Assembly (NCBI RefSeq): GCF_963921235.1 | Contig: NC_086097.1 | Span: forward strand, 47,742,001 to 47,806,000 | Reading direction: 5' to 3' | Source of the DNA: Mobula hypostoma | Taxonomy: Eukaryota | Length of the DNA stretch: 64,000 nt | In this document: one piece after another, positions 1-49,308 of the stretch | Numbering within the stretch: position 1 is the stretch's first letter | Layout of the letters: every line of letters starts with the position of its first letter | The notes under the pieces: generated by a model | What the model saw: only the letters and a program-made list of their open reading frames with translations | What the model was told of the DNA's origin: nothing | Database searches by the model: none | Program-made: the position numbers and the translations under genes

Positions 1-102
1 AAGCAATGGGCTAACTTGAAACCAAACAGAGTTAAACTTAAAATCACGTCCTCAATCCCGACCTCCATTAAAACAGTGAAAAAAAAACAAGAAGGGTAAA
101 TA

Positions 103-2194
103 TTACATTAAATGAAAATATCGAATAAAAGGTCCCCAAATCTGTTCAAATTTAAATGAAGAGTCATGAAGGTTACTTCTAATTTTCTCCAGATTCAAAC
201 ATAAAATCGTCTGAGAAAACCAAAAAAAGGTAGTTGGAGCATTAAGCTCTTTCCAATGTTGTAAAATACATCTTTTCGCCATTAAAGTAAGAAATGCAAT
301 CATTCTACGGGCTGAAGGGGAAAGATTACTAGAAATTTTAGGTAGTCCAAAGATAGCAGTAATAGGGTGAGGAGAGATATCTATATTTAATACCTTAGAA
401 ATAATATTGAAAATATCTCTCCAAAAAGTTTCCAAAGTAGGGCAAGACCAAAACATATGAGTTAAAGAGGCTATCTGCCCCGAACATCTATCACAGAAAG
501 GATTAATATGCGAGTAAAAACGCGCTAACTTATCTTTGGACATATGTGCTCTATGCACCACTTTAAATTGAATTAGGGAATGTTTAGCACAAATAGAAGA
601 AGTATTAACTAATTGTAAAATCTGCCCCCAATCATCCACAGAAATGGTAAGCCCCAATTCCTGTTCCCAATCTACCCTAATCTTATCAAATGGAGCTTTC
701 CTGAGTTTCATAATAATATTATAAATCATAGCCGATGCACCTTTCTGACATGGATTAAGGTTAATTATCGAATCTAAAATATATATAGGAGGAAGCATTG
801 GAAAAGAAGGAAGTATAGTACTTAGAAAATTTCTAACTTGTAAATATCTAAAAAAATGTATTCTTGATAGGTTATATTTATTAGATAATTGTTCAAAAGA
901 CATAAGGGAACCATCTAAAAATAAATCCAAAAACCGTAAAATACCCTTAGTCTTCCAAGTTTGAAAAGCGCGATCCGTAAAAGAGGGAGGAAAAAATATG
1001 TTACCTAAAATAGGAATCGCTAACCCGAATTGATTAAGATCAAAAAATTTTCTGAATTGAAACCAAATACGCAAAGCATATTTAACGATCGGGTTAGAAA
1101 CCTGCTTAAGGCGTTTCGAATCAAAAGGAAGAGATGAACCTAAAATAGAACCAAGTGTATAACCCTGAACAGATTGTAATTCCAATGCTACCCATTTAGG
1201 AATAGATAGTATATCCCGGTCAAGTAACCAAAATTTCATATGTCGAATATTAATAGCCCAATAATAAAATCTAAAGTTAGGTAATGCTAAACCTCCATCT
1301 CTCTTAGCTTTCTGTAAATGTATTTTACCCAGTCTCGGATTCTTATTCTGCCAAATAAATGAAGAAATTTTAGAGTCGACTTTATCAAAAAAAGATTTAG
1401 GAACGAAAATTGGTAATGCCTGAAACACATATAAAAATTTTGGCAAAAAAAACATCTTAACTGCATTAATACGACCAATCAAAGTTAAATATAAAGGAAA
1501 CCATTTAGATGAAAGTTGAGTAATATGGTCTATTAATGGTAAAAAGTTAGTCTTAAATAAATCTTTATGTTTACAAGTAATTTTAATCCCAAGATATGAA
1601 AGGTAATTATTAATCAATTTAAATGGAAATTTATAATATAAGGGAAGATGTTTATTAATCGGAAAAAGTTCACTCTTACTAAGATTTAATTTATAACCTG
1701 AGAAAAGACCAAATTGTGCTAATAACTCTAAAACAGCAGGAATAGATCTCTCAGGATTAGAAATATATAAAAGTAAATCATCAGCATAGAGTGATAATTT
1801 ATGGGACTTTAATCCCCGAGTTATCCCAGTAATATTTGAAGATTCTCGAATAGCAATTGCAAGAGGTTCTAATGCAATATCAAATAATAGGGGACTAAGA
1901 GGACAGCCTTGTCGAGTACCACGAAAGAGAGGGAAAAAAGGTGAGTTTAAAGAGTTAGTACGAACCGAGGCTACAGGGGAGTGATATAACAGTTTAATCC
2001 AGGATATAAATTTCAGGCTAAAATTAAACATTTCAAGCACCTTAAATAAATAAGGCCATTCTACTCTATCAAAAGCTTTCTCGGCATCTAAAGAAATAAC
2101 ACACTCAGGAACATTTTGTGAGGGAGTATAAACGATATTTAACAATGTACGAATATTATAAAAAGAGTAACGACCTTTAATAAAACCCGTTTGG
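103..2194 (-). CDS. Host L1 ORF2p, C-terminal part (interrupted by nested L1)
   Basis: Open frame QTGFIKGRYS...RYFHLM, about 6 aa different from the same part of ORF 3970-7746. Confidence 0.9.
2179..2194 (+). repeat. Left target-site duplication AATAAAACCCGTTTGG
   Basis: Identical 16-mer at 8102-8117; site context TTT/AATAAAA resembles the L1 endonuclease consensus TT/AAAA. Confidence 0.95.
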
Positions 2195-2351
2195 AGGAGA
2201 CTTCCGGTAGCGCTCATGGAGTGAAGTCGCGTTCTTGACTCGCTCCATTACCTCTGAGTTTTTTCTCTCTATGGTCAGCTATACTTTAATTAACTATTAA
2301 GGCATCAATTTTTACAATACTTTGAATTAAACTGAATTCTCTGACAATTGG

Positions 2352-3251
2352 ATGGAACTTAGATCTGCTATGTCTAAGAACGGGAAAGACGGCAAGGATG
2401 GTAAACCTCCGGTTAAACCGAAAGCTACGGATCTCCCTCCGACTGAATCACCGGTGACTTTGGAAGCTATATCGGAGTTAATTCAGAGGGAAATTTCAAC
2501 CTCTGTTAGGGAGATGATTCGTACAGAAATTATGGGCTTTGTTAAAGACCTGATTCATATGGAAATCTCAACTAAGTTCCAGAAAATTGCCGATTTAATT
2601 GATAAGATGCAAACATGTATTGCGGAACATCAGTCGGCTATATCTGGTCTTCAAAAATCCGCGCAACAAAGTGAGCTTAAGATGGGGAAAGTCGAAGAAA
2701 CAATTAATGTAATGAAGAAGAAACTTGACTTTTTGACTTTTAAAAACTCTGACTTGGAATCTAGAATGCGACGGCAGAATTTACGAATGATTGGCGTCAG
2801 GGAAGCCGTGGAAGCTAACAACCCTATGAAATATTTCTCTCAACTTTTAAAAGATGCATTCCCTACTGTATTTCCTGACCAACCACCGCTACTGGATCGT
2901 GTTCACAGAATCCCATCATACTCGTCTAGGTCAGATAGACCTAGGCATGTTATCTTACGTTTTCATTACTTTCAAGATAAGGAGAGACTGTTTCGATTCG
3001 CTCGATCTAAAGGTTTCATTGATTTTTCGGATCTTAAGTTCCGATTCGTGGAAGATTTCAGTAAACCAATCTGGGACCAACGGGTCCGTTACAGATCCGT
3101 GATGTCGGAATTCTATAAGATGGATTTAAGACCAGCGCTGCTGTACCCTGCACGTCTAAGGATTCGCATGTTAGATGGAGCTCTTCGTTTTTTTGATTCT
3201 CCATCGGATGCCCAGAGTTATCTGGATCAACTTTCATCTTCAACATCTTAA
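2352..3251 (+). CDS. L1 ORF1p (coiled coil, RRM, CTD; Transposase_22-like)
   Basis: 299 aa; motifs DLESRMRRQNLRMIGVRE, DRVHRI, PRHVILRF, LLYPARLRI typical of vertebrate L1 ORF1p. Confidence 0.95.
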   Translation: MELRSAMSKNGKDGKDGKPPVKPKATDLPPTESPVTLEAISELIQREISTSVREMIRTEIMGFVKDLIHMEISTKFQKIADLIDKMQTCIAEHQSAISGLQKSAQQSELKMGKVEETINVMKKKLDFLTFKNSDLESRMRRQNLRMIGVREAVEANNPMKYFSQLLKDAFPTVFPDQPPLLDRVHRIPSYSSRSDRPRHVILRFHYFQDKERLFRFARSKGFIDFSDLKFRFVEDFSKPIWDQRVRYRSVMSEFYKMDLRPALLYPARLRIRMLDGALRFFDSPSDAQSYLDQLSSSTS

Positions 3252-3969
3252 TTGCCTTTTTTTAATTTTCTCCGTTGATCGGAGGCTGTGAATTGGTTGG
3301 TTTTAACTTTTCTGTGCCCTATTTGGGCAGAAAAGTTTACTTTCGATTTCTTAATATGGCTGCTAAACTTTCTTTTTAACTGCGTCATTTCTTTCTTTTC
3401 CCAGGGGATTCTGGGTGGTTACTTCCCTTTTGTCATCTTACGTATTTCCTGTGCGGCCTTAAATTTTGTAGTTTTTTTTAAATTTTATTCTGTTTTGCTT
3501 TTTATAATCATTTTATGTTAATAATCCTATTTTTTTTGTTGCTGTGTCTATTCATGAGTTTGAGGTTTATTGTGGTTTTTTTTAATATATACTTTCCGGC
3601 TTTTGTTCTGTTCTGTGTGTATTTTAATTGAGTTAACTTTTTTTTACTTATTTTTTACTGTTTTACAATTAGCTGATCCTTTTCATATTTATACCTTTTT
3701 TTTAGGGAGCGTATACCGGAAGTCATGGGGGTAGTTTTAGCGCTTGCTTCTTTCTGGCGGGTCTGCTTTAGATTTCGCCTTGGGGTCCTGGGGTGGGGGG
3801 CGGTGGGAGGGGCTTCACGTTTTAGTTTGTTTCTCTTTGGGCTATATACATTATTGAAGTATTGGTTACGTCCTTTTCCCCGGTATCTTTTGTATGTTCT
3901 GTTTCCTCTCCGGGTCTGTGGGTCGCGCCTATTGTCAATCCTCCTTGTTATGGGTTGACTTTAGGATTT

Positions 3970-6900
3970 ATGGAGTCTATTATTAATTTTGTCTCCTGGA
4001 ATACTAATGGTCTTAATCATCCTATTAAAAGGAAAAAAGTTTTTAAAGTGTTCCGGAGACTTAAAGCACAAATTTTATTTTTACAAGAGACCCATGTACG
4101 GAGGGGGGACAGACTACGTTTTTTCAAATTTTGGAAGGGACAACAATTTCATTCGAACTCCAATGCTAAGATTCGAGGCGTCTCTATCTTTATAGACTCC
4201 TCAGTTACTTTTATACAACAGGATATTATCTCTGATCCGAATGGTAGATTTTTATTGGTTAGTGGTTTATTATTTAATAAAAAAGTAGTTTTGGTTAATG
4301 TTTATGCTCCTAATATGGATTGTCCGGAATTTTATAAATCATTGTTTGATCAGTTTCCGAATTTGAACGAGTTTTCATTGATTTGGGGCGGAGATCTTAA
4401 TACCTGTTTATCTCCAGCTTTGGACCGTTCGGCTCCTTTACGGACTTTACCTAATAAATCTGCAAATTTGATTAATTTTTTCCTTTCTGATTCTGGGTCG
4501 ACGGACATTTGGCGTTTCCTGCATCCTCAGGAAAAAGATTTTTCCTTCTTTTCACATGTTCATCATTCCTATTCAAGAATTGATTATTTTTTCATTGATT
4601 CTCGTCTCATTTCTTCAGTGATTAAATGTGATTATGATTCTATAACCATTTCGGATCATGCTCCACTTAAGCTTTCTATTAAAATTATGGCCAATATACC
4701 AAACAATAGACAATGGCGTTTTAATTCGCTGTTGCTTCAGGACTCGGACTTTGTTAATTTTATGAATGAACAGATTGAGCTTTTTTTTACAATTAACCAT
4801 ACAGAAGATATTTCGGTTAACACTCTTTGGGACACTTTTAAAGCCTATATTCGGGGTCAGATTATTTCGTATTCCGTTGCTTTGAGGAAGAAACAGAAGC
4901 AGGAGGAGATGGTAATTGTGGACAAGATTAAAGAAATTGATAAGAAATATGTTATGGCTCCTTCTGAGGAGCTATACAAACAAAGAACTGAACTTCAAAT
5001 GGAACACAGTTTACTACTCTCGTCCTCGATTGTAAACCAATTAAAGAAAACAAGAAGTGATTTTTATGTTCACAGTGATAAAATTGGCAAGCTGCTGGCT
5101 AATCAATTGAAATCTAATTATGTTAAATCTCAAATCAATCAGATTTATAACCAAAATGATCGATTGATATTGGATCATGTGGGGATTAATCAAACCTTTT
5201 GTGATTTTTATTCTTCTTTATACCAATCAGAGTCTCCTCGAGATTCTAAATATATGAATGATTTTTTAGATAAGTTAGACTTCCCTCTGATTTCACAGGA
5301 TATGTCTTCTTTATTAGATACTTCCATTACAATGGATGAGATTAAGAATGTTATTTTTTCTATGAATCTGGGGAAAGCTCCTGGCCCTGATGGGTTTACC
5401 GTTGAATTTTATAAATGTTTTGCTTCTTTATTGATTCCTTGGCTCTATAAGGTTTTTGAGGCTTCTTTGAAACTTGGTAAACTTCCGGAATCTTTTAATA
5501 GAGCATCAATTTCTTTAATACTAAAGAAGGATAAAGACCCTGCTCAATGTGCATCTTATAGACCAATATCTTTATTAAATGTTGATTCTAAAGTTTTTTC
5601 TAAGTTATTAGCAAATAGACTAGAAAAAGTACTCCCTTCTATTATTTCGGAAGACCAAACGGGTTTTATTAAAGGTCGTTACTCTTTTTATAATATTCGT
5701 ACATTGTTAAATATCGTTTATACTCCCTCACAAAATGTTCCTGAGTGTGTTATTTCTTTAGATGCCGAGAAAGCTTTTGATAGAGTAGAATGGCCTTATT
5801 TATTTAAGGTGCTTGAAATGTTTAATTTTAGCTTGAAATTTATATCCTGGATTAAACTGTTATATTACTCCCCTGTAGCCTCGGTTCGTACTAACTCCTT
5901 AAACTCACCTTTTTTTCCTCTCTTTCGTGGTACTCGACAAGGCTGTCCTCTTAGTCCCCTATTATTTGATATTGCATTAGAACCTCTTGCAATTGCTATT
6001 CGAGAATCTTTAAATATTACTGGGATAACTCGGGGATTAAAGTCCCATAAATTATCACTCTATGCTGATGATTTACTTTTATATATTTCTAATCCTGAGA
6101 GATCCATTCCTGCTGTTTTAGAGTTATTAGCACAATTTGGTCTTTTCTCAGGTTATAAATTAAATCTTAGTAAGAGTGAACTTTTTCCGATTAATAAACA
6201 TCTTCCCTTATATTATAAATTTCCATTTAAATTGATTAATAATTACTTTTCATATCTTGGGATTAAAATTACTTGTAAACATAAAGATTTATTTAAGACT
6301 AACTTTTTACCATTAATAGACCATATTACTCAACTTTCATCTAAATGGTTTCCCTTATATTTAACTTTGATTGGTCGTATTAATGCAGTTAAGATGTTTT
6401 TTTTGCCAAAATTTTTATATGTGTTTCAGGCATTACCAATTTTCGTTCCTAAATCTTTTTTTGATAAAGTTGACTCTAAAATTTCTTCATTTATTTGGCA
6501 GAACAAGAATCCGAGACTGGGTAAAATACATTTACAGAAAGCTAAGAGAGATGGAGGTTTAGCATTACCTAACTTTAGATTTTATTATTGGGCTATTAAT
6601 ATTCGACATATGAAATTTTGGTTACTTGATCGGGACATACTATTTATTCCTAAATGGGTAGCATTGGAATTACAATCTGTTCAGGGTTATACACTTGGTT
6701 CTATTTTAGGTTCCTCTCTTCCTTTTGATTCGAAACGTCTTAAGCAGGTCTCTAACCCGATAGTTAAATATGCTTTGCGCATTTGGTTTCAATTCAGAAA
6801 ATTTTTTGATCTTAATCAATTTGGGTTAGCGATTCCTATTTTAGGTAACATATTTTTTCCTCCCTCTTTTACGGATCGCGCTTTTCAAACTTGGAAGACT

Positions 6901-7746
6901 AAGGGTATTTTACGGTTTTTGGATTTATTTTTAGATGGTTCCCTTATGTCTTTTGAACAATTATCTAACAAATATAACTTATCAAGAATACATTTTTTTA
7001 GATATTTACAAGTTAGAAATTTCCTAAGTACTATACTTACTTCCTTTCCAATGCTTCCTCCTATATATATTTTAGATTCGATAATTAACCTTAATCCATG
7101 TCAGAAAGGTGCATCGGCTATGATTTATAATATTATTATGAAACTTAGGAAAGCTCCATTTGATAAGATTAGGGTAGATTGGGAACAGGAATTGGGGCTT
7201 ACCATTTCTGTGGATGATTGGGGGCAGATTTTACAATTAGTTAATACTTCCTCTATTTGTGCTAAACATTCCCTAATTCAATTTAAAGTGGTTCATAGAG
7301 CACATATGTCCAAAGATAAGTTAGCGCGTTTTTACTCGCATATTAATCCTTTCTGTGATAGATGTTCGGGGCAGATAGCCTCTTTAACTCATATGTTTTG
7401 GTCTTGCCCTACTTTGGAAACTTTTTGGAGAGATATTTTCAATATTATTTCTAAGGTATTAAATATAGATATCTCTCCTCACCCTATTACTGCTATCTTT
7501 GGACTACCTAAAATTTCTAGTAATCTTTCCCCTTCAGCCCGTAGAATGATTGCATTTCTTACTTTAATGGCGAAAAGATGTATTTTACAACATTGGAAAG
7601 AGCTTAATGCTCCAACTACCTTTTTTTGGTTTTCTCAGACGATTTTATGTTTGAATCTGGAGAAAATTAGAAGTAACCTTTATGATTCTTCATTTAAATT
7701 TGAACAGATTTGGGGACCTTTTATTCGATATTTTCATTTAATGTAA
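3970..7746 (+). CDS. L1 ORF2p (endonuclease, reverse transcriptase, CCHC), 1258 aa from ATG 3970
   Basis: EN motifs SWNTNG, LQETH, GGDLN, SRIDY, SDH; RT motifs KAPGPDGF, YRPISLL, DAEKAFD, QGCPLSP, YADD; CDRC-X8-H-X4-C. Confidence 0.97.
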   Translation: MESIINFVSWNTNGLNHPIKRKKVFKVFRRLKAQILFLQETHVRRGDRLRFFKFWKGQQFHSNSNAKIRGVSIFIDSSVTFIQQDIISDPNGRFLLVSGLLFNKKVVLVNVYAPNMDCPEFYKSLFDQFPNLNEFSLIWGGDLNTCLSPALDRSAPLRTLPNKSANLINFFLSDSGSTDIWRFLHPQEKDFSFFSHVHHSYSRIDYFFIDSRLISSVIKCDYDSITISDHAPLKLSIKIMANIPNNRQWRFNSLLLQDSDFVNFMNEQIELFFTINHTEDISVNTLWDTFKAYIRGQIISYSVALRKKQKQEEMVIVDKIKEIDKKYVMAPSEELYKQRTELQMEHSLLLSSSIVNQLKKTRSDFYVHSDKIGKLLANQLKSNYVKSQINQIYNQNDRLILDHVGINQTFCDFYSSLYQSESPRDSKYMNDFLDKLDFPLISQDMSSLLDTSITMDEIKNVIFSMNLGKAPGPDGFTVEFYKCFASLLIPWLYKVFEASLKLGKLPESFNRASISLILKKDKDPAQCASYRPISLLNVDSKVFSKLLANRLEKVLPSIISEDQTGFIKGRYSFYNIRTLLNIVYTPSQNVPECVISLDAEKAFDRVEWPYLFKVLEMFNFSLKFISWIKLLYYSPVASVRTNSLNSPFFPLFRGTRQGCPLSPLLFDIALEPLAIAIRESLNITGITRGLKSHKLSLYADDLLLYISNPERSIPAVLELLAQFGLFSGYKLNLSKSELFPINKHLPLYYKFPFKLINNYFSYLGIKITCKHKDLFKTNFLPLIDHITQLSSKWFPLYLTLIGRINAVKMFFLPKFLYVFQALPIFVPKSFFDKVDSKISSFIWQNKNPRLGKIHLQKAKRDGGLALPNFRFYYWAINIRHMKFWLLDRDILFIPKWVALELQSVQGYTLGSILGSSLPFDSKRLKQVSNPIVKYALRIWFQFRKFFDLNQFGLAIPILGNIFFPPSFTDRAFQTWKTKGILRFLDLFLDGSLMSFEQLSNKYNLSRIHFFRYLQVRNFLSTILTSFPMLPPIYILDSIINLNPCQKGASAMIYNIIMKLRKAPFDKIRVDWEQELGLTISVDDWGQILQLVNTSSICAKHSLIQFKVVHRAHMSKDKLARFYSHINPFCDRCSGQIASLTHMFWSCPTLETFWRDIFNIISKVLNIDISPHPITAIFGLPKISSNLSPSARRMIAFLTLMAKRCILQHWKELNAPTTFFWFSQTILCLNLEKIRSNLYDSSFKFEQIWGPFIRYFHLM

Positions 7747-8078
7747 TATTTACCCTTCTTGTTTTCTCTTCACTGTTTTAATGGAGGTCGGGATTGAGGA
7801 CGTGATTTTAAGTTTAACTCTGTTTGGTTTCAAGTTAGCCCATTGCTTTGCTTTGCTTTTAGTTAGTTGCACGGTGGGTTTTTTTTTTGGGGTTTTTTTT
7901 TTCTTTTTTTCCATTGATATATATAAAATCTAGTATACTATTATGTTATCTTGGTTTCTTATGCTTAAATTACATTGTTTGTAGTATTTTCTTTTTGGTA
8001 TTGTTATCTTTTGGAATTTTATTATACTTTAACATTGTATTAATGTTTATATGGCTTACCTTTTTTGTATACTTACTC

Positions 8079-8101
8079 AATAAAAAGATTTAAAAAGAAA
8101 G
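8079..8101 (+). terminator. L1 polyadenylation signal and short AAAAAGAAAG tail
   Basis: AATAAA at 8079-8084 followed by AAGATTTAAAAAGAAAG and then the right TSD. Confidence 0.8.
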
Positions 8102-8117
8102 AATAAAACCCGTTTGG
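8102..8117 (+). repeat. Right target-site duplication AATAAAACCCGTTTGG
   Basis: Identical to 2179-2194. Confidence 0.95.
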
Positions 8118-9802
8118 TCTTCCGAAATAATAGAAGGAAGTACTTTTTCTAGTCTATTTGCTAATAACTTAGAAAAGACTTTAGAATCAACATTTAATAA
8201 AGATATTGGTCTATAAGATGCACATTGAGCAGGATCTTTATCCTTCTTTAGTATTAAAGAAATTGATGCTCTATTAAAAGATTCCGGAAGTTTACCAAGT
8301 TTCAAAGAAGTCTCAAAAACCTTATAGAGCCAGGGAATCAATAAAGAAGCAAAACATTTATAAAATTCAACGGTAAACCCATCAGGGCCAGGAGCTTTCC
8401 CCAGATTCATAGAAAAAATAACATTCTTAATCTCATCCATTGTAATGGAAGTATCTAATAAAGAAGACATATCCTGTGAAATCTGAGGAAAGTCTAACTT
8501 ATCTAGAAAATCATTCATATATTTAGAATCTCGAGGAGACTCTGATTGATATAAAGAAGAATAAAAATCACAAAAGGTATGATTAATCCCCACATGATCC
8601 AATATCAATCGATCATTTTGGTTATAAATCTGATTGATTTGAGATTTAACATAATTAGATTTCAATTGATTAGCCAGCAGCTTGCCAATTTTATCACTGT
8701 GAACATAAAAATCACTTCTTGTTTTCTTTAATTGGTTTACAATCGAGGACGAGAGTAGTAAACTGTGTTCCATTTGAAGTTCAGTTCTTTGTTTGTATAG
8801 CTCCTCAGAAGGAGCCATAACATATTTCTTATCAATTTCTTTAATCTTGTCCACAATTGCCATCTCCTCCTGCTTCTGTTTCTTCCTCAAAGCAACGGAA
8901 TACGAAATAATCTGACCCCGAATATAGGCTTTAAAAGTGTCCCAAAGAGTGTTAACCGAAATATCTTCTGTATGGTTAATTATAAAAAAAAGCTCAATCT
9001 GTTCATTCATAAAATTAACAAAGTCCGAGTCCTGAAGCAACAGCGAATTAAAACGCCATTGTCTATTGTTTGGTATATTGGCCATAATTTTAATAGAAAG
9101 CTTAAGTGGAGCATGATCCGAAATGGTTATAGAGTCATAATCACATTTAATCACTGAAGGAATGAGACGAGAATCAATAAAAAAATAATCAATTCTTGAA
9201 TAGGAATGATGAACATGTGAAAAAAAGGAAAAATCTTTTTCCTGAGGATGCAGAAAACGCCAAATATCCGTCGACCCAGAATCAGAAAGGAAAAAATTAA
9301 TCAAATTTGCAGATTTATTAGGTAAAGTCCGTAAAGGAGCTGAACGGTCCAAAGCTGGAGATAAACAGGTATTAAGATCTCCGCCCCAAATCAATGAAAA
9401 CTCGTTCAAATTCGGAAACTGATCAAACAATGATTTATAAAATTCCGGACAATCCATATTAGGAGCATAAACATTAACCAAAACTACTTTTTTATTAAAT
9501 AGTAAACCACTAACCAATAAAAATCTACCATTCGGATCAGAGATAATATCCTGTTGTATAAAAGTAACTGAGGAATCTATAAAAATAGAGACGCCTCGAA
9601 TCTTAGCATTGGAGTTCGAATGAAATTGTTGTCCCTTCCAGAATTTGAAAAAACGTAGTCTGTCCCCCCTCCGTACATGGGTCTCTTGTAAAAATAAAAT
9701 TTGTGCTTTAAGTCTCCGGAACACTTTAAAAACTTTTTTTCTTTTAATAGGATGATTAAGACCATTAGTATTCCAGGAGACAAAATTAATAATAGACTCC
9801 AT
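8102..9802 (-). CDS. Host L1 ORF2p, N-terminal part (EN domain to SEDQTGFI), interrupted
   Basis: ATG at 9802 (MESIINF); open up to the TSD; joins in frame with 103-2194 once the insert and one TSD copy are removed. Confidence 0.9.
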
Positions 9803-10525
9803 AAATCCTAAAGTCAACCCACAACAGGGAGGATTGACAATAGGCGCGACCCACAAACCCGGAGAGGGAACAGAACATACAAAAGATACCGGGGAAAAGG
9901 ACGCAACCAGTACTTCAATAATGTATATAGCCCAAAGAAAAACAAACTAAAACGTGAAGCCCCTCCCGCCACCCCCCAGCCCAAGACCCCAAGGCAAAAT
10001 CTAAAGCAGACCCGCCAGAAAGAAGCAAGCGCTAAAACTACCCCCATGACTTCCGGTATACGCTCCCTAAAAAAAAGGTATAAATATGAAAAGGATCAGC
10101 TAATTGTAAAACAGTAAAAAAATAAGTAAAAAAAAGTTAGCTCAATTAGAATACACACAGAACAGAACAAAAGCCGGAAAATATATATTTAAAAAAAACC
10201 ACAATATACCTCAAACTCATGAATAGACACAGCAACAAAAAAAAATAGGATTATTAACATAAAGTGATTATAAAAAGCAAAACAGAATAAAATTTAAACA
10301 AAAACTACAAAATTTAAGGCCGCACAGGAAATACGTAAGATGACAAAAGGGAAGTAACCACCCAGAATCCCCTGGGAAAAGAAAGAAATGACGCAGTTAA
10401 AAAGAAAGTTTAGTAGCCATATTAAGAAATCGAAAGTAAACTTTTCTGCCCAAATAGGGCACAGAAAAGTTAAAACCAACCAATTCACAGCCTCCGATCG
10501 ACGGAGAAAATTAAAAAGAAAGCAA

Positions 10526-11425
10526 TTAAGATGTTGGAGATGAAAGTTGATCCAGATAACTCTGGGCATCCGATGGAGAATCAAAAAAACGAAGGGCTCC
10601 ATCTGACATGCGAATCCTTAGACGTGCAGGGTACAGCAGCGCTGGTCTTAAATCCCTCTTATAGAATTCCGACATCACGGATCTGTAACGGACCCGTTGG
10701 TCCCAGATTTGTTTACTGAAATCTTCCACGAATCGGAACTTAAGATCCGAAAAATCAATGAAACCTTTAGATCGAGCGAATCGAAACAGTTTCTCCTTGT
10801 CTTGAAAGTAATGAAAACGTAAAATAACATGCCTAGGTCTATCTGACCTAGACGAGTATGATGGGATTCTGTGAACACGATCCAGTAGCGGTGGTTGGTC
10901 AGGAAATACAGTAGGGAATGCATCTTTTAAAAGTTGGGAGAAATATTTCATGGGGTTGTTACCTTCAGCGGCTTCCCTCACGCCAATCATTCGTAAATTC
11001 TGCCGTCGCATTCTAGATTCCAAGTCAGAGTTTTTAAAAGTCAAAAAGTCAAGTTTCTTCTTCATTACATTAATTGTTTCTTCGATTTTCCCCATCTTAA
11101 GCTCACTTTGTTGCGCGGATTTTTGAAGATCAGATATAGCCGACTGATGTTCCGCAATACATGTTTGCATCTTATCAATTAAATCGGCAATTTTCTGGAA
11201 ATTAGTTGAGATTTCCGTATGAATCAGGTCTTTAACAAAGCCCGCAATTTCCGTACGAATCATCTCCCTAACAGAGGTTGAAATTTCCCTCTGAATTAAC
11301 TCCGCTATCGCTTTCAAAGTCACCGGTGATTCAGTCGGAGGGAGATCCGTAGCTTTCGGTTTAACCGGAGGTTTACCATCCTTGCCGTCTTTCTCGTTCT
11401 TAGACATAGCAGATCTAAGTTCCAT
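10526..11425 (-). CDS. Host L1 ORF1p
   Basis: 299-aa intact ORF, 15 substitutions relative to 2352-3251. Confidence 0.95.
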   Translation of the reverse strand: MELRSAMSKNEKDGKDGKPPVKPKATDLPPTESPVTLKAIAELIQREISTSVREMIRTEIAGFVKDLIHTEISTNFQKIADLIDKMQTCIAEHQSAISDLQKSAQQSELKMGKIEETINVMKKKLDFLTFKNSDLESRMRRQNLRMIGVREAAEGNNPMKYFSQLLKDAFPTVFPDQPPLLDRVHRIPSYSSRSDRPRHVILRFHYFQDKEKLFRFARSKGFIDFSDLKFRFVEDFSKQIWDQRVRYRSVMSEFYKRDLRPALLYPARLRIRMSDGALRFFDSPSDAQSYLDQLSSPTS

Positions 11426-11582
11426 CCAGTTATCGGAGAATTCAGTTTAATTCAAAGTATTGTAAGAGTTGATGCCTTAATGGTTAATTAAAGTATAGCT
11501 GACCATAGAGAAAAAAAACTCAGAGGTAATGGAGCGAGTCAAGAACGCGACTTCACTCCATGAGCGCTACCGGAAGTCTCCC

Positions 11583-12733
11583 GATTTTAGTAAGGCATTT
11601 GACATGTCCTTCGTGGTTGGCTCATCTGGAAGATTAAGCTGCATGGGATCATTGTGAATTCGCCATTGGGATTCATTACTGGTTTACGCATGGAAGATAG
11701 AGGGTAGAGGTCAAAGGATTTTATTCTAGCAGGAGGTCTGTGATTAGTGTTCTGCAGGGATCTGTACTGGGACCGCTGCTGTTTGTGATGTATATAAATG
11801 ACCCTGGTGAAAATGGAAATGGGTGAATCAGTAAGTTTACAGATGATATGAAGATTGGTGGTTTTATGAATAGCGTAGATGACTGGCAAAGAATATAGTG
11901 GGATAGACAGTTGATCAGTTGCAGGTATGGGCAGAGAGATGACAGATGCAGTTTAAGCTGGCCAAATGTGAAGTGTGGAACCTTGGTAGGTCAAATGCAA
12001 AGAGACAATACACTGTTAATGGTGCGACTCTTAGAATTATTTATAAGCTGAAGGATCTTGGGGTCCAAGTTCTTGGCTTCCTGAAAATGGCTACACAGGT
12101 TGATTGGGTGGTTGAGAAGGCATATGGCAGGTTTGTGTTCATTAGTGAGGCAGTGAGTTCAAAAGTCAGGAAGTGATTCTATGGGTGAGCCGGTTATGAA
12201 TCCAGTTTTATAAAACTAGTTAGGCCGCATTTGAAGTATTGCATACAATTCTGGTCCCCCTATCCGTAGGACAGATGTTGAGGCTTTGGAGAGAGTGCAG
12301 AAGAGGTTTACCAGGATGCTGCCTGGATTAGAGAGCATGTGCTGATGGGTGGTCAGACAAAGGTTTATAAGATGATGAAAGGCATAGATAGAGTAGACAG
12401 ACAGTATCTTTTCCCCAGAGTTGAAGTGTCTAATGCCAGAGGGCATGTACTTACGGTGGGGGGGGGTGATTTTAAAGGAGATGTGAGAGCATGTTTGTTT
12501 TTTTTACACAAAGCGTGGTGGGTGCCAGGAATGCACTGCCTGGATAGTGGTAGAGGCAGATACATTAGTGACTTAAGATCGGCACGTGACCGTGAAGAAA
12601 ATGGAGGAATGTGCACATTCTGTATGCATAAAGATTTGTTTAGTTGGCTATTTGATCACTAATTTTATTTTGGTTTGGCACAACATTGTGGGCCAGAAGA
12701 TCTGTTCCTGTGCTGTACTGTTGTATGTTCCAT
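11583..12733 (+). mobile_element. Degraded CR1 LINE, 3' part (RT to 3' tail), abutting the host L1 5' end
   Basis: Starts GATTTTAGTAAGGCATTTGAC (DFSKAFD); later remnants of RPHLEYCVQFWSP and LERVQKRFTRMLPG; CR1-type end cctgtgctgtactgttgtatgttc. Confidence 0.85.
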
Positions 12734-18449: not shown

Positions 18450-21400
18450 TCAGCCTGATGCAGCTGAAAAGCTCAACTGCTTCTAAGGTCAGTCCAGTCA
18501 ATAAAGATGTCTTAATACATTTAAACAAACTATCGCTGCTTAGAACTGACAGAAACAATACCAATTGGGGACGGATTCCTCATAGGATTCCACGCAGGAT
18601 ACATGGCTGCTGGTCAGGGCTACAAGTGTGTTTAAGGAAACGGCTTTAAACTCCCAATACCGACTACATATCTTGCTGGCAAATGTGCATCCTCTGGTAA
18701 ATAAAATTGATGATCTCAGCTAGGGTGCTGAATCAGAGGGACATTAGAACTGCATGTGTCCTTTGTTTCATGGAATCCTGGTTAACCCCTTCTGTACCGG
18801 ATACAGTGATTCAGATCGACGGGTTTACTATACACCGTCAGGATAGATCTATAGAGACTCTCAAAAGCAGAGGTGGAAGAGTATGCCTCATGACCAACCC
18901 TTCTTGGTGCACAAATATATCAGTGCTGTCCCAATTCTGCTCACCAGACCTGGAATATCTAGCAGTTAAGTGCTGTCCATTTTATTTACCACGGGAGATT
19001 TCTGGGATAATTTTGGTAGCGGTATACATTTCACCTCAGGCCAGTATCATTCATGCTTTAGATGATCTGAGCAATGAGATCAACATGCACGAAACAGCGC
19101 ACCCTCATACCTTTACCATTGTTTTGGGGGATTTTAATCAGGCTTGTCTGAAAAAATCACTAAAGCAATTACCATCACCAGATCTCTTGCAATATCAGAG
19201 GAAACAACACACTGGACCATCGTTACATCACCATCAAGAATGCCTACTGTGCTATTTCACGCCCTCACTTTGGGAAGTCTGATCACCTGGCTGTACTTCT
19301 ATTCCCTGAATATAGGCAGAGACTGAAGAATGCAGCACCTGTAGTGGGGACCAAGAAGGTTTGGACAAGAGAAGCACAGGAGCGATTACAAGACTACTTT
19401 GAATCGGTGGACTGGACTGTATTCAGGGATTCATCTTTGAAACTGGATGAGTATGCTGTAGTTGTTACTGATTAAAACCTGTGTGGATAAGTGTGTGCCT
19501 ACAAAGACTTGCTGTACATTCCCAAATCAAAAGCCTTGGATGAACCAGGAGGTACCCATCTACTGAAGGCTAGATCTGTGGCATTTAAGTCTGGCAATCC
19601 AGGTAGGTACCAGAAAACCAGGTATGATTTGCGAAGGGCTATTTCAAGGGTGAAGGGACAATTTTGAACGAGGTTGGAGGTGACATCGGATGCAGGGTAA
19701 CTCTGGCAGGGTTTGCAAGACATTACTTCCTATAAAGCGAAACCCAATAGCATGAATGGCAGCAATGTTTCACTACCAGATAAACTCAGCACCTTCTAAG
19801 CCCGCTTTGAAAGAGAGAATATAACTACAGCTGTGAAGATCCTTGCTGTACCTGGTGACCCTGTGATCTCTTATCTCAGAGGCCAATGTTAGGCTATCTT
19901 TAAAGAGGGTGAACCCTTGCAAGGCAGAAGGACCCGATGGAGTACCTGAGAAGGCTCTGAAAACTTGTGTCAACCAACTGGCGGAAGTATTCAAGGATAT
20001 TTTCAGCCTTTCTCTGCTACGGGTGGAAGTTCCCTCTTGCTTCAAAAAGGCAACAATTATACCAGTGACTAAGAAGAATAATGTGAGCTGCCTTAATACC
20101 TATCATCCGGTAGGACTCACATCGACAGTCATGAAATGCTTTGAGAGGTTGATCATGACTGGACTGAACTCCTGCCTCAGCAAGGACCTGGACCCATTTC
20201 AATTTGCCTATTGCCACAATAGGTCAACGGCAGATGCAATCTCAATGGCTCTTCACACAGTTTTAGACCACCTGGACAACACAAACTCCTATGTTAGGAT
20301 GCTATTCATGGACTATAGCTCAGCATTTATAACACCGTCATTCCCACAGTCCTGATTGAGAAGTTACAGAACCTGGGCCTCAGTACCTCTCTCTGCAGTT
20401 GGATCCTGGACTTCCTAAATGGAAGACCACTATCTGTGCGGATTGGTGATAACATATCCTCCTCGCTGATGATCAATACTGCTGCACTTCGGGTGTGTGC
20501 TTAGCCCACTACTCTAATCTACTCTATATCCATGATTGTGTGGCCAGGTGTAGCTCAAATACTATCTATAAATTTGCTGATGATACAACTATTGTTGGTA
20601 GAATTTCAGATGGAGACGAGGGCATAGAGGAGTGAGATATGCCAATTAATGGAGTGGTGTTGCAGCAACAACCAGCAACCCAACATCAGTAAGATGAAAG
20701 AGCTGATTGTGAACTTCAGGAAGGGTAAGATGAAGGAACACATACCAGTGCTCATAAGAGGGATCAGAAGTGGAGAGAGTGAGCAGTTTCAAGTTCCTGG
20801 GTGTCAAGAGCTCTGAGGACCTAACCTGGTCCCAACATATCGATGCAGTTATAAAGAAGGCAAGACAGCAACTATACTTCACTGGGAGTTTGAAGAGATT
20901 TCTTATGTCAACAAATACACTCAAAAACTTCTATAGATGTACCGTGGAGAGCATTCTGACAGGCTGCATCATTGTCAGCTTTGGGGGGGCGGGCGGGGTG
21001 TTGGGCTACTGCACAGGGCAGAAAGAAGCTGCAGAGGATTGTAAATTTAGTCAGCTCTGTTATAGCGTGAATTGAATCACCGGTGGGGGCGGGGAGAGAG
21101 AGAGTTACCAATAGATACAAAGCAGCTTCTTTATTTGACAAAGCAAGGTTCAGCAGGCATCATACGGACGGAGACGCTTTTGGTGGAAAGGTCTGTTAGC
21201 CCAATGTGGGCTCTATTTGCTAAGCACAAAGGGCAATCCATACTTACAAGGTATAGACAATGCTTTCTTTTGAAGCTACATACAAAACATCACACTTTCT
21301 GACTTCATCCATTCCTCCTGACGCCAGCATGTCTGGGCTGGTATTCACAGCCTTTAGGAATGCAAGTTAAATCCACAGTACATTTATTTGGTATCTTATG

Positions 21401-29729: not shown

Positions 29730-31952
29730 TCTTCAGCGGTTTGATTGGGGCACAACTGCGCCAGCGTGTGGATGTCAGCCAGTTGGAACAGTGAGAAGAG
29801 TTTAAAAGGAGACAGCTTTATAGAGCGGGCAACAGAGTTGGGGGAGACAGAGTAGAAAAGCTTTGGCTCAGCGGGGCTTCGGCAATAAGGGGTCAAGGCG
29901 AGGTAGGTTATCTGTGTAGAATACAGACGGAAAATATGTATGTGAGGCCGGTGTTCTGTGCTCAGTGTCAGATGTGGGGAGTCCTGGAGATTTCCAGCCT
30001 CCTGGATGGCCACATCTGTGCCAGGTGCATGGACTGTGTTAGGGAACTGGAGATGCAGCTCGATGACCTTCGTCTGGTCAGGGAAAGTGAGAAGGTGATA
30101 GGAGCGACAGGCAGATAGTCGCGCTGGGGCCTGGGGAGACAGATAAGTGGGTAACAGGAGAGGGAAGGATAGGAGTCAGAGGCTAGAGAGCACCCCTGTG
30201 GCTGTACCCCTTGACAATAAGTACTCCTGCTTGAGTACTGTTGTGGGAGACAGCCTACCTGGGGGAAGCAACAGTAGCTGCGCCCCTGGCACAGAGTCTG
30301 GCCCTGTGGCTCAGAAAGGTATGAAAAGGAAGAGGATGGCAGCAGTGATAGGGGACTCTATAGTTAGGGGGTCAGACAGGCAATTCTGTGGACGCAGGAA
30401 AGAAGCATGGACGGTAGTTTGCCACCCAGGTGCCAGGGTCTGGGATGTTTCTGATCGAGTCCATGATATCTTGAAGTGAGAAGGAGAACAGCCAGAGGTC
30501 ATGGTACATATTGATACCAACAACATAGGTAGGAAAAGGGAAGAGATCCTGAAAACAGACTTCAGGGAGTTAGGAAGGAGGTTGAGAAGCAGGACCTCAA
30601 AGGTAGTCATCTCGGGATTACTGCCTGCGCCACGTGACAGTGAGTATAGGAATAGAGTGAGGTGGAGGATAAATATGTGGCTGAGGGATTGGAGCAGAGG
30701 GCAGGGATTCAGATTTCTGGATTATTGGGACCTCTTTTGGGGCAAGAGTGACCTGTACAAAAGGATGGGTTGCACTTGAATCCCAGGGGGACCAATATCC
30801 TGGCGGGGAGGTTTGCTAAGGCTTTTGGGGAGAGTTTAAACTAGGTTTGCTTGGGGGGGGGGGAGGGAGGTGGTGGGAACCAAACTGAAGAGACAGAGGA
30901 AGAGATGGTTCGCTCACAAATAGAGAAAGCTTGGAGACAGTGCGATAGGCAGGTGATAGAGAAGGGACTTGCTCAGACCGATGGTTTGAGATGTGTCTGT
31001 TTTAATGCAAGGAGTATTATGAACAAAGCAGATGAGCTTAGAGTGTGGATCAGTACTTGGAGCTATGATGTGGTGGCCATTACAGAGACTTGGATGGCTC
31101 AGGGGCAGGAATGGTTACTTTGAGTGCCAGGCTTTAGATGTTTCAGAAAGGACAGGGAGGGAGGCAAAAGAGGTAGTGACCAGAGATAGTGTCACGGCTG
31201 CGGAAATGGAGTAAGACATGGAGGGATTGTCTATGGAGTCTTTGTGGGTGGAAGTTAGGAACAGGAAGAGGTCAATAACTCTACTGGGTGTTTTTTATAG
31301 ACCACCCAATAGTAAAAGGGACATAGAAGAGCAGGTAGAGAGATAGATTCTGCAAAGGTGTAATAATAACAGGGTTGTCGTGGTGGGAGATTTTCATTTC
31401 CCAAATATCGATTGGCATGTCCCTAGAGTGAGGAGTTTAGATGGGGTGAAGTTTATTAGGTGTATTCAAGAAGGATTCTTGACACAATATGTAGATAAGC
31501 CTACGAGAGGAGAGGCTGTACTTGATCTGGTATTGGGAAATGAACCTGGTCAGGTGTCCGATCTCCCAGTGGGAGAGTATTTTGGAGATGGTGATCATAA
31601 TTCTATCTCCTTTACAATAGCATTGGAGAGGGATAGGAACAGACACATTAGGAAAGCGTTTAATTGGAGTAAGGGGAAATATGAGTCTGCCAGGAAGAAA
31701 CTTGGAAGCATAAATTGGGAATAGATATTCTCAGGGAAATGTACGGAAGAAATGTGGCAGATATTCAGGGGATATTTACGTGGAGTTCTGCATAGGTACA
31801 TTCCAGTGAGACAGGGAAAGGATGGTAGGGTACAGGAACCATGGTGTACAAAGGCTGTTGTAAATCTAGTCAAGAAGAACAGCAGAGCTTACGAAAGGTT
31901 CAAAAAACTAGGTAATGATAGAGATCTCGAAGATTATAAGGCTAGCAGGAAG
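29730..31952 (+). mobile_element. CR1 LINE 5' part (ORF1 zinc finger and SGNH esterase, ORF2 EN), 3'-truncated and degraded
   Basis: CAQCQMW...HICARC, VIGDSIVRG, RTSKVVISGLLP, CFNARSIMNKADEL, GDFHFPNIDW. Confidence 0.88.
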
Positions 31953-42505: not shown

Positions 42506-43552
42506 TTGACAGGGGACTGTCTTGTCTCCCTTTCTCTTCACCATTTACACCTCGGACTTCAACTACTGCACAGAGTCTTGTCATCTTCAGAAGTTTTCGG
42601 ATGACTCTGCCATAGTTGGATGCATCAGCAAGGGAGATGAAGTTGAGTACAGGGCTGCGGTAGAAAACTTTGTCACATGTTGTGAACAGAATTATCTGCA
42701 GCTTTATGTGAAAAAGACTAAGGAGCTGGTGGTAGACCTGAGGAGCGCTAAGGTACCAGTGACCCCTGTTTCCATCCAGGGGGTCAGTGTGGACGTGGTG
42801 GAGGATTACAAGTACCTGGGGATACGAATTAACAATAAACTGGACTGGTCAGAGAACACTGAGGCTGTCTACAAGAAGAGTCAGAGCCGTCTCTACTTCC
42901 TGAGGAGACTGAGGTCCTTTAACATCTGCCGGATGATGCTGAGGATGTTCTACGAGTCTGTGGTGGCCAGTGCTATCATGTTTGTGTTATCATGTTTGCT
43001 GTTGTGTGCTGGGGCAGCAGGCTGAGGGTAGCAGACACCAACAGAATCAACAAACTCATTCGTAAGGCCAGTGATGTTGTGGGGATAGAACTGGACTCTC
43101 TCACGGTGGTGTCTGAAAAGAGGATGCTGTCTAAGTTGCATGCCATCTTGGTCAATGTCTCCCATCCACTACATAATGTACTGGTTGGGCACAGGAGTAC
43201 ATTTAGCCAGAGACTCATTCCTCCGAGATGCAGCACAGAGCGTCATAGGAAGTCATTCCTGCCTGTGGCCATCAAACTTTACAACTCCTCCCTTGGAGGG
43301 TCAGACACCCTGAGCCAATAGGCTGGTTCTGGACTTATTTCATAATTTACTGGCATAATTTACATATTACTATTTAACTACTTATTACTGTTTTCTACTA
43401 CTATTCTATTACTATTCATTATTTCTATGACTATTACTTTTTACTATTTACTAATGGTAATGTTACTATTACTATTTCTATTACCATTTATTATTTATGG
43501 TGCAACTGTAACAAAAACCAATTTCCCCCGGGATCAATAAAGTATAACTATG
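42506..43552 (+). mobile_element. Younger Rex1/Babar-clade LINE 3' fragment
   Basis: GTVLSPFLFTIYTSDF...KFSDDSAIVG...YKYLG...RLYFLRRLRSF; tail cccgggatcaataaagt; (TAC/TAT)-rich low-complexity 3' UTR. Confidence 0.85.
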
Positions 43553-47229: not shown

Positions 47230-49308
47230 TTACAGAGGCATGAGAGAGAAGCCTGCCCAGGTGGATTGGAGGAAGATACTGGCGGGGATGATGGCAGAGC
47301 AGAGATGAGTTTCTGGGTATAGTTCACAAGGCGCAGGATAGATATGTCCCATAGGAAGACGTTCTCAAATGGCAGTGGTAGGCAATTGTGGCCAACAAAG
47401 GAAGTTAAGAGCTGCATAAAAGACAAGGAAAGGGCATATATGATAGCAGAAGTAAATGGGAAGTTGGATGATTCGGAAGCTTTTAAAATCTAACAAAAGG
47501 CAACTAAAAAGCTATAAGAAGGGAAAAGATGAAATAGGAGGGCAAACTAGCAGGATACCAGAAGAATTTTCAGTTATATAAAGAGTAAAAGGGAGGTGAG
47601 AGTTGATATTGGACCACTGGTGAGGTGGTAATTGGGGACGAAGAAATAGCAGATGGAATTAATAGGTACTTTGCATCTCTCTTCACTGTGGAAGACACTA
47701 GCAGTGTGCCAATGGTCCATGAGTGTCAGCAAGCTGGAGTGAGTGCCATTGCTATTATAAAGGAAAAAGTACTAGGCAAGCTGGAACATCTTAAGGTGGA
47801 TAAGTCACCTGGTCCAGATGGATTACATCCAAGAGTCCAGAGAGAGGTTGCTGAAAAGATAAAGGATCTTTCAAGAATCACTTGACTCTGGCATGGTCCC
47901 AGAGGACTGAAAGATTGTAAATATCACTCCACTCTAAAAGAAAGGAAGTTATAGGCCATTTAGCCTAACCTCAGTGGTTGGGACAGTGTTGGATTCTATT
48001 ATTAAAGGAACTTGGAGACTCATGATAAAATAAGTCAAAATCCGCATGGTTTCTGTAACAGGAAATCTTGCCTGACAAATCTGTTAGATTTCTTCGAGGG
48101 ACTAACAAGCAGGATGGACAAAGGAGAGGCAGTGGATGTCACTTACTTGGGTTTTCAGAAGGCATTTGGTAAGGTGCCACACATGAGGATGGTTAACACG
48201 ATAAATTCCTAAGGTGTTACAGGAAATGTACTGGCATGGATAGCAGAATGGCTGACAGGCAGGAGGCAGTGAATGGGAATAAAAGGGGCCTTTTCTGGTT
48301 GGGTGCTAATGACCAGTAGTGTTCCTCAGGGGTCAATATTGGGACCGGTGCTTTTCACATTGTTTGTCAATGACTTAGATAATGGAATTGATGGCTTTGT
48401 GGCAAAGTTTGTGGATGATACGAAGATAGATGGAGGGCTAGGTAGTGCTGAGGAAGCAATGCGATTGCAGCAGGACTTTGACAAATTGGAAGAATGGGCA
48501 AAAATGGCAGATGGAGTACAGTGTTGGGAAATGTGTGATAATGCATTTTGGTAAAAGGAACAATAATGCGGTCTATTATCTAAAGGGGAAAAGGTTCAAA
48601 CATCAGAGGTGCAGAGTGACTTGGGAATCCTCGTGCAAGATTCCCAAAATGTTAATTTACAGGTTTGAGTCTGTGGTAAAGAAGACAAATGCAATATTGG
48701 CATTTATTTCAAGGGGAATAGAATACAAAATCAAGAAGATAATTCTGAGCCTTTATAAGTCACTAGTCTGGCCGCACTTGGAGTATTGCCAACGGTTTTG
48801 GGCAGCATATCTCAGAAGTGATGTTTTATCATTGGAGAGAGTCCAGAGGAAGTTCACGAGGATGATTCCGGGAATGAAGGGGTTAATGATGAGGAGCATT
48901 TGGCAGCTTTGGGCCTGTGCTCAGTGGAGTTTAGAAGAATGCACAGGGATCTCAATGAAACCTACCGAATGTTGAAAGGACTAGATAAGATGGATGTGGA
49001 GAGGATGTTTTCTCTGGTGAGGGTATGTAGAACTAGAGGGCACAGCCTCAAAATTGAACGAGGTAAGGAGAATTTTTTTAGCCAGAGAGTAGTAAGTCTG
49101 TGGAATATTCTGCCGCAGTGTGCGGCAGAGGCCAAGTCTGTGGGTATGTTTAAGGTGGAAGTTGATCATTTCCTGATTGATCAGGGCATCAAAGGATATG
49201 GTAAGTAGGCAGGTGTATGGGGTTGAATCGGATCTGGGATCAGCAATGATGGAATGGCAGAGCAGACTCTGAGTTGGATGGCTTAATTCTGCTCCTATGT
49301 CTTATGGT
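47230..49308 (+). mobile_element. Degraded CR1 LINE (ORF2 RT to 3' tail)
   Basis: VDKSPGPDGLHPRV, SCLTNLLDFFE, VPQGSILGPVLF, KFVDDTK; tail ttctgctcctatgtcttatggt. Confidence 0.88.

Follow-up and report, generated by a model that had tools for sequence, protein, structure and literature searches.

How a complete L1 retrotransposon comes to lie inside another member of its own family, and whether such an arrangement reflects chance, a preference of the family for its own copies or a fault of assembly, is the question raised by the first 11.6 kb of a 64,000-nucleotide stretch of the Mobula hypostoma genome (G000:C1:47742001-47806000 of a 3.48-Gb assembly, contig NC_086097.1; "the window" hereafter means this whole stretch). 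Here, a full-length L1 on the plus strand (inner L1) splits a minus-strand L1 of the same family (host L1), which itself interrupts an old long interspersed nuclear element (LINE) that we take, from its motifs, to be a CR1. The three-tier nest is real, cleanly preserved and made by known chemistry; as a nested insertion it is ordinary, while the 3' end of the family is unusual. Three successive retrotranspositions, CR1, then L1 into CR1, then L1 into L1, very probably account for it, with the last one probably having hit its site by chance, helped by the density of target motifs and by local clustering of insertions.

Junctions and order of the insertions

The inner L1 is flanked by a target-site duplication (TSD) of 16 bp, AATAAAACCCGTTTGG, which is exact on both sides and not extendable in either direction. 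This sequence is found nowhere else on the plus strand of the window, and its reverse complement is present at 5655, the equivalent site in the second open reading frame (ORF2) of the inner copy itself. The two halves of the host are collinear; they align to 2196-5670 and 5655-7848 of the inner L1 and overlap by exactly the 16 bp of the TSD, with no gap in either ORF. The host 5' part differs from the inner copy by 76 mismatches in 3,475 positions and five one-base gaps, all in the spacer between the ORFs, and the 3' part by 31 mismatches in 2,194 positions without gaps. Across the insertion site the host ORF2 is free of stops; 41 silent and 12 replacement codons set it apart from that of the inner copy, and the pN/pS of 0.078 points to selection in the active lineage. 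A preliminary description, made from the letters of this stretch alone, had read it as an antisense insertion into a sister L1 with a perfect TSD, an uninterrupted rebuilt host ORF2 and open ORF1s (299 aa in both copies), and in all these points it was right. However, it had also called the host intact, which does not hold, as the host 3' untranslated region (UTR) stops 173 nt early (see below).

The top strand at the left junction reads ...CCTTT|AATAAAA, which places the nick on the bottom strand at TATT/AA, and the junction of inner tail and target reads GAAAG|AATAAAA, fitting the family pattern. The TSD, the family-typical 5' end and tail and the endonuclease-type site point to target-primed reverse transcription (TPRT), as proposed earlier. 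The 5' and 3' junction patterns occur once each in the assembly, and an insertion hot spot at this exact base is thereby ruled out.

The outer junction closes in the same way. In the DNA upstream of the window, which contains the 5' part of the CR1, the left CR1 piece ends with ...VDVVHLDF, the right piece starts with DFSKAFD, and the two share a 6-bp TSD, GATTTT. An uninterrupted paralog (L012) matches both CR1 halves (74% and 71%) with an overlap of ~5 nt, so that the element closes without loss; the halves are collinear and overlap in the TSD alone. The third tier, earlier suspected from the DFSKAFD motif, is thus confirmed by upstream sequence that holds the host 3' tail, its TSD and the rest of the CR1. 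In a related organism (organism B), the alignment of one contig begins at 11583, the first TSD base, and leaves 34 letters (themselves unseen) unmatched beyond this point; this single contig looks like an empty CR1 site from which the host L1 is absent. Close by, window position 11623 is T in all four contig runs (1-2 contigs each, mostly near contig ends) and C in the window, which may be a private change or an allele.

The host 3' UTR breaks off at an internal ATATATAAAA; the tail that comes after it is short, A-rich and interrupted by T. This exact junction is unique in the assembly, and the short end as a subfamily trait was rejected on that ground. A looser pattern gave five matches (against one in the reversed control), three of which end at this site and two of which are point variants running on. 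Besides the host, the copies ending here are L093 (G000:C9:199.85 Mb) and L100 (G000:C80:33.85 Mb), each with TT and 10-13 A; all three have A-rich tails. The site is therefore a recurrent alternative 3' end, and L093 and L100 are independent copies. For human L1, 3' truncation has been described as a result of premature polyadenylation or internal priming (PMC4859970). Premature polyadenylation most likely produced the host end as well. Internal priming, in which the GATTTT end of the target would have paired with AAAAUC of the RNA and then slipped, is the less probable of the two routes, although a serious one: read in element orientation, the host TSD is AAAATC, identical to the 6 nt that come next in the element, the L093 TSD AAAGAATCTGCC also contains AATCT, and no canonical poly(A) signal (AATAAA or ATTAAA) is present 10-30 nt upstream of the cut, which speaks against the polyadenylation that we favour. 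Yet L100 has the same end point with GAATG in its flank, and the TT and 10-13 A of L093 and L100 are absent from the template and resemble added poly(A). The choice between the routes touches one step and leaves the nest unaffected. At L027 7561-7610, ~290 nt before the host 3' junction, a 49-nt stretch bounded by AG...GT has one open frame and was noted by eye as a possible small exon.

The locus was thus very probably built in three steps. An old CR1-type LINE inserted and decayed. An L1 RNA ending 173 nt early, most likely through premature polyadenylation, then entered the CR1 by TPRT at GATTTT/AG with a 6-bp TSD. Much later, a ribonucleoprotein particle (RNP) of the currently amplifying sub-lineage nicked the sense strand of the host ORF2 at TATT/AA; with the GAAA-repeat end of the RNA as the probable priming site, the full 5.9 kb was copied and the 16-bp TSD arose, the host ORF2 being split and the inner copy intact. 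The site was probably struck by chance, aided by modestly denser target motifs and by local insertion clustering. Of this history, the junctions, TSDs, sequence of insertions, open frames and relative ages are read from the DNA itself, as are the size of the family, its tail type and the register of tail and target (see below); the TPRT chemistry, the priming on the repeat, the premature polyadenylation and an activity of the inner copy today are inferred.

An L1 family with a GAAA tail

Both ORFs of the inner copy are open and their catalytic motifs are present, and the copy may be active today. The Transposase_22 domain scores above the Pfam cut-off in both L1 copies; the named matches of ORF1, including the best one, are fish LINE-1 ORF1 proteins. 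The inner ORF2 and residues 4-1231 of human L1 ORF2p are collinear (622 bits, E 1.3e-185), whereas R2 proteins score 87 bits or less; the endonuclease and reverse transcriptase (RT) motifs of human ORF2p (PDB 8sxt and related entries) are conserved here too. Judged by its proteins and architecture the element is an L1.

Its architecture is that of fish L1s, described as ~5.8 kb long with a short 5' UTR starting with GGACTTCCGG and a T-rich 3' UTR (PMC5381506). Compared with the zebrafish values of that paper, the element measures 5.9 kb (5,794 +/- 404), its 5' UTR 155 bp (165 +/- 42), ORF1 900 bp (877 +/- 70) and ORF2 3,777 bp (3,773), and the spacer of 718 bp falls within the 311-730 bp of fish L1s. 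The short 5' UTR starts with GACTTCCGG (zebrafish motif, GGACTTCCGGTT), and the long T-rich spacer, the T-rich 3' UTR and the terminal AATAAA are likewise shared with fish elements (PMC5381506). The base composition of ORF2 (39% T, 29% A) differs from that of fish L1 (31% T, 33% A; PMC7140322). The spacer holds a G-quadruplex-like tract (3782-3807) ~190 nt before ORF2 begins; at 3716 lies a second motif of the ACTTCCGG type, in reverse orientation.

The 3' end sets the family apart. Across the assembly, AAAAAGAAA comes directly after the family 3' end in 2,140 cases and ten A in 32, where the L1 3' end has been reported as AATAAA with a poly-A tail in all species studied (PMC5381506, Boissinot and Sookdeo 2016). 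No A-run longer than 8 is present in 31 of 32 systematically sampled tails, and the longest A-run is 5 in 28 of 29. AATAAA is present, but the poly(A) tail typical of the L1 clade is not, and we treat the family as a variant in this respect. The A-rich tail of the preliminary description is a tail of the kind that TPRT leaves; it is, however, a GAAA repeat (AAAAAGAAAG), as is the norm for the family, and not poly(A). The TT/AAAA-like site of that description has to be modified as well: the TT is kept (of 23 sites, 19 have T at -2 and 17 have it at -1), but the sites agree on TT|RARA, and 13 of the 23 carry G at +1. TSDs are 10-19 bp long in 29 of 29 copies, variable and at pyrimidine/purine (TT|RR-type) sites as in the L1 clade.

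Human L1 primes on poly(A) at T-rich nicks (PMC3812793), whereas this family uses TT|GARA as readily as TT|AARA and probably primes in GAAA register. In 27 of 29 copies the first TSD base keeps to this register (13 of 13 G-starts, 14 of 14 A-starts). In the simplest reading, the encoded GAAA repeat is probably what the nicked DNA end pairs with, and the number of repeats changes by slippage. Against this stands the fit over the first six TSD bases, 3.9 for the GAAA register versus 3.5 for poly(A) (P 0.12, not significant), so that the case for pairing covers the terminal base or two alone. That an L1 lineage has come off poly(A) altogether, priming on an encoded, slippage-extended GAAA with an endonuclease that accepts G at +1, and in this state has given rise to several hundred near-identical full-length copies, is a tentative idea, and we consider it rather doubtful at present.

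Short tandem-repeat tails made by slippage are a feature of the LINEs L2/UnaL2, CR1 and RTE. The present family is like them in its variable-number short repeat tail and in having the target in register, and unlike them, as members of other clades, in its L1-type ORF1 and ORF2. The titles and abstract beginnings listed in literature searches mention neither a GAAA-tailed L1 nor L1 nests in cartilaginous fish, which is weak evidence, most subscription papers lying outside the searches; the novelty of the tail is not established, as repeat libraries were outside the comparison. If mobilisation is truly poly(A)-independent and undescribed, the family would contradict, as a natural case, the view that L1 requires poly(A). 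It makes testable how general the poly(A) dependence of L1 is and whether endonuclease preference co-evolves with the tail.

The exact 30-nt 5' end of the family occurs 1,021 times in the assembly. Among 40 systematically sampled 5' ends (on C5 and C9), 32 have the 3' end as expected, two are slightly shorter and older, one ends at the internal site, and five have no L1 sequence at the expected 3' position (not traced further); 34 of the 40 thus reach the normal 3' end. This contrasts with the very few full-length progenitors reported for fish and reptiles (PMC5381506), and makes the full-length load of this genome a test of the proposed removal of long L1s from non-mammalian genomes. The 22 best-scoring other full-length copies differ from the inner L1 by 1-12 substitutions and 20 of them keep both ORFs; picked for similarity, they overstate the intactness of the family as a whole. 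The inner copy has no private substitution among these 23 copies. Its nearest sister, L003 (G000:C67:39386888-39392792), differs by one substitution in 5.9 kb, shares its rarest variants and fits a sibling, parent or offspring. No 3' transduction of the inner copy's flank is present in the assembly. The family is large, young and, by these counts, probably active, in line with what had been supposed.

Of the sub-lineages seen, that of the inner copy is the youngest; the host comes from an older one. Three relatives differ from the host halves at 20-21 of ~3,457 and 7-10 of ~2,228 positions and from the inner copy at 76-81 and 28-29 (L028, for example, at 20 and 7 versus 76 and 28), and the host has 15 positions unlike both the inner copy and all three relatives. 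Silent ORF2 transitions between host and inner copy, read on the sense strand, comprise 36 C/T and 2 A/G changes (847 and 458 sites; P 1.7e-5), and a like bias (19 versus 4) is seen in the private changes of the 23 youngest copies. As mutation of resting DNA should be strand-symmetric, most of the differences probably arose in the cycle of transcription and reverse transcription; the bias, together with the T-rich ORF2, may be an error or editing signature of this cycle. In L1s of lizard and fish the commonest singletons are C-to-T and G-to-A, and in those of frog many are T-to-C (PMC7140322).

Several L1 lineages coexist in the genome, since young copies lie in or beside diverged older L1s: the flank of L007 has 64% ORF2 identity, those of L022 26-39% protein identity, and L044 (G000:C2:52.76 Mb) was placed here by eye. 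In two contig runs of organism B (X5 and X7, over 8030-12400), ORF2 is well covered at 92% likeness while the spacer has almost no coverage; although the depth of contigs measures this weakly, the pattern suggests a diverged sister family in organism B, with the present sub-lineage amplified after the split. At three further loci on C1 (L095, L096 and L097 at 21.74, 26.86 and 163.94 Mb), the 5' end of the element stands head to head with internal positions ~1520, 1215 and 1484. Such joins resemble the 5' inversions made by twin priming.

Chance, self-targeting or misassembly

Nests of L1 in L1 are abundant in human (21,559 sense, 9,899 antisense; Table 3 of Levy et al. 2010, PMC2836564), where, as here, a younger L1 splits an older one. 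However, both partners of the present nest are young and nearly full length, unlike those human nests, and three of the four nests known in this family are antisense where human nests favour sense (small numbers); the antisense lean fits the purine runs on the antisense strand of this T-rich element. The first 100 5' ends listed include three further full-length-in-full-length nests on C1 (29403585-29415424, 168775062-168784006 and 175553807-175561521; L031-L041). Their TSDs measure 17, 13 and 12 bp; two of these nests are antisense and one is sense. In the third, the host is ~94% identical and a 74%-identical older L1 adjoins its 5' side. Nesting is thus not peculiar to the window, with such nests abundant in human and three more on the same contig, and uniform chance alone would give about 0.9 nests genome-wide.

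Four nests so early in the list raised the possibility that the family prefers its own full-length copies, for instance because transcribed L1 loci are open or because the RNP is tethered by RNA:DNA homology, the window being one product of such self-targeting. Several counts weigh against mere chance. Among 83 5' ends on C1 there are four nests (TSDs of 16, 17, 13 and 12 bp), and 0.078 are expected under uniform placement; over the whole list of 423 ends on eight contigs, the three nests left without that of the window are an 8.9-fold excess (95% confidence interval 1.8-26), with P 0.005 under uniform placement and P 0.08 with a threefold background boost. C1 also differs from C2, C5 and C9 taken together when the pair of the window is left out (Fisher P 0.0007, post hoc), and L007 lies antisense in an older, 74%-identical L1. 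Nevertheless, the excess was not replicated in the 323 further ends: the 340 ends on C2, C5, C9, C12, C18, C21 and C22 include no nest (0.26 expected), and at the rate of C1 5.5 would be expected on C2, C5 and C9 alone. Note that the lists outside C1 lack one class of 5' end (168 of 1,021; except in the first 60 Mb of C2), those of C21 and C22 a second, and those of C18 and C22 are partial, so that some nests could be missed. None of the 22 close sisters lies in a host of the same family (one, L007, lies in the older L1), and none of 32 sampled 3' flanks is L1. Furthermore, the four insertion points (element positions ~1840, 3015, 3310 and 3465) all differ, which leaves no hot spot and no site-specific, Tx1-like behaviour. 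The density of target motifs in the element is 1.2-1.9 times that of 121 kb of flanking DNA, and copy pairs 12-100 kb apart are about twofold over-represented (14 versus 6.6), both of which raise the chance expectation. Genome-wide self-targeting is therefore unsupported, and as an origin of the nest in the window it is improbable; self-targeting confined locally to one chromosome is just as improbable, although all four known nests are on C1 and the excess there is unexplained.

An even remoter explanation is that the assembly is wrong here, or that two neighbouring copies underwent inversion or recombination. The inverted arms of 2.2 and 3.5 kb with 98-99% identity and the more than one thousand similar copies in the genome would make such an error conceivable. 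Four Logan contig sets from two samples were compared over 8030-12400, a range that excludes the junction 2194/2195, and tables were swamped by contigs of other copies; among the 32 pieces listed (69,344 more being unlisted), no contig spans 8101/8102, which counts against the nest as assembled. A loose contig end at 8102 is the uninterrupted ORF2 of any family copy and is uninformative on this locus. Neither process, however, would place a 16-bp duplication at an endonuclease-type site and have it border exactly on the 5' end and the tail that are typical of the family. Furthermore, both host halves share one sub-lineage and thus come from one element, the outer TSD closes, and three other nests show the same anatomy. 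We therefore retain three successive insertions, the last one probably by chance, as the history of this locus.

The nest itself is of minor consequence: it puts dates on three insertions, and one copy among about a thousand is disabled by it. A hairpin RNA could form from the long inverted arms, which is doubtful given 8 AATAAA and 4 ATTAAA in the loop on the host strand.

Features of the locus and the remaining window

Coordinates of the nested elements and their parts, in window positions unless a contig is named (aa, amino acids)
Feature	Position	Strand	Remarks
Host L1, 3' part	1..2194	-	ORF2 from QTGFIKGRYS to the stop at 103-105, then start of 3' UTR
Host L1, 5' part	8102..11582	-	5' end GGGAGACTTCC at 11582; spacer; ORF2 from ATG at 9802 to ...SEDQTGFI
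Host ORF1	10526-11425	-	299 aa, open
Inner L1	2195..8101	+	full length, 5,907 bp; start (AG)GAGACTTCCGG; fish-type L1
Inner 5' UTR	2197..2351	+	short, 155 bp, with GACTTCCGG start motif
Inner ORF1	2352..3251	+	299 aa from ATG; L1 RBD-like domain (Transposase_22), Pfam E 8.8e-10
Inter-ORF spacer	3252..3969	+	T-rich, 718 bp
Inner ORF2	3970..7746	+	1,258 aa: APE endonuclease, RT (YADD), C-terminal Cys/His motif
Inner 3' UTR	7747..8091	+	T-rich; AATAAA at 8079-8084
Internal alternative 3' end site	near 7928		within inner 3' UTR numbering; used by host and two other copies
Inner tail	8092..8101	+	AAAAAGAAAG, GAAA repeat without poly(A) tract
TSD of inner L1, left copy	2179..2194	+	16 bp; junction pattern single in genome
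TSD of inner L1, right copy	8102..8117	+	16 bp; junction pattern single in genome
TSD of host L1, left copy	G000:C1:47741897-47741902		GATTTT, 6 bp; upstream of window
TSD of host L1, right copy	11583..11588	+	GATTTT, 6 bp
Old CR1-type LINE, decayed	11583..12705	+	RT 3' part (DFSKAFD...), many stops; right boundary approximate; repeat family D12

To the right of the nest, 74 of the 134 open frames of at least 75 aa between 11.6 and 64 kb were scanned with Pfam; seven gave matches, all compatible with LINE pieces, and no non-LINE match that would hint at a host gene was found among these 74 frames (short exons were not sought). Decayed LINE pieces are present at 18701-21072, 30480-31721, 42510-43022 and 48273-48551, with Pfam matches to endonuclease, RT, ALKBH8_N-like and GDSL-esterase domains. 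Old repeats abound in the remaining window, as do short inverted repeats.

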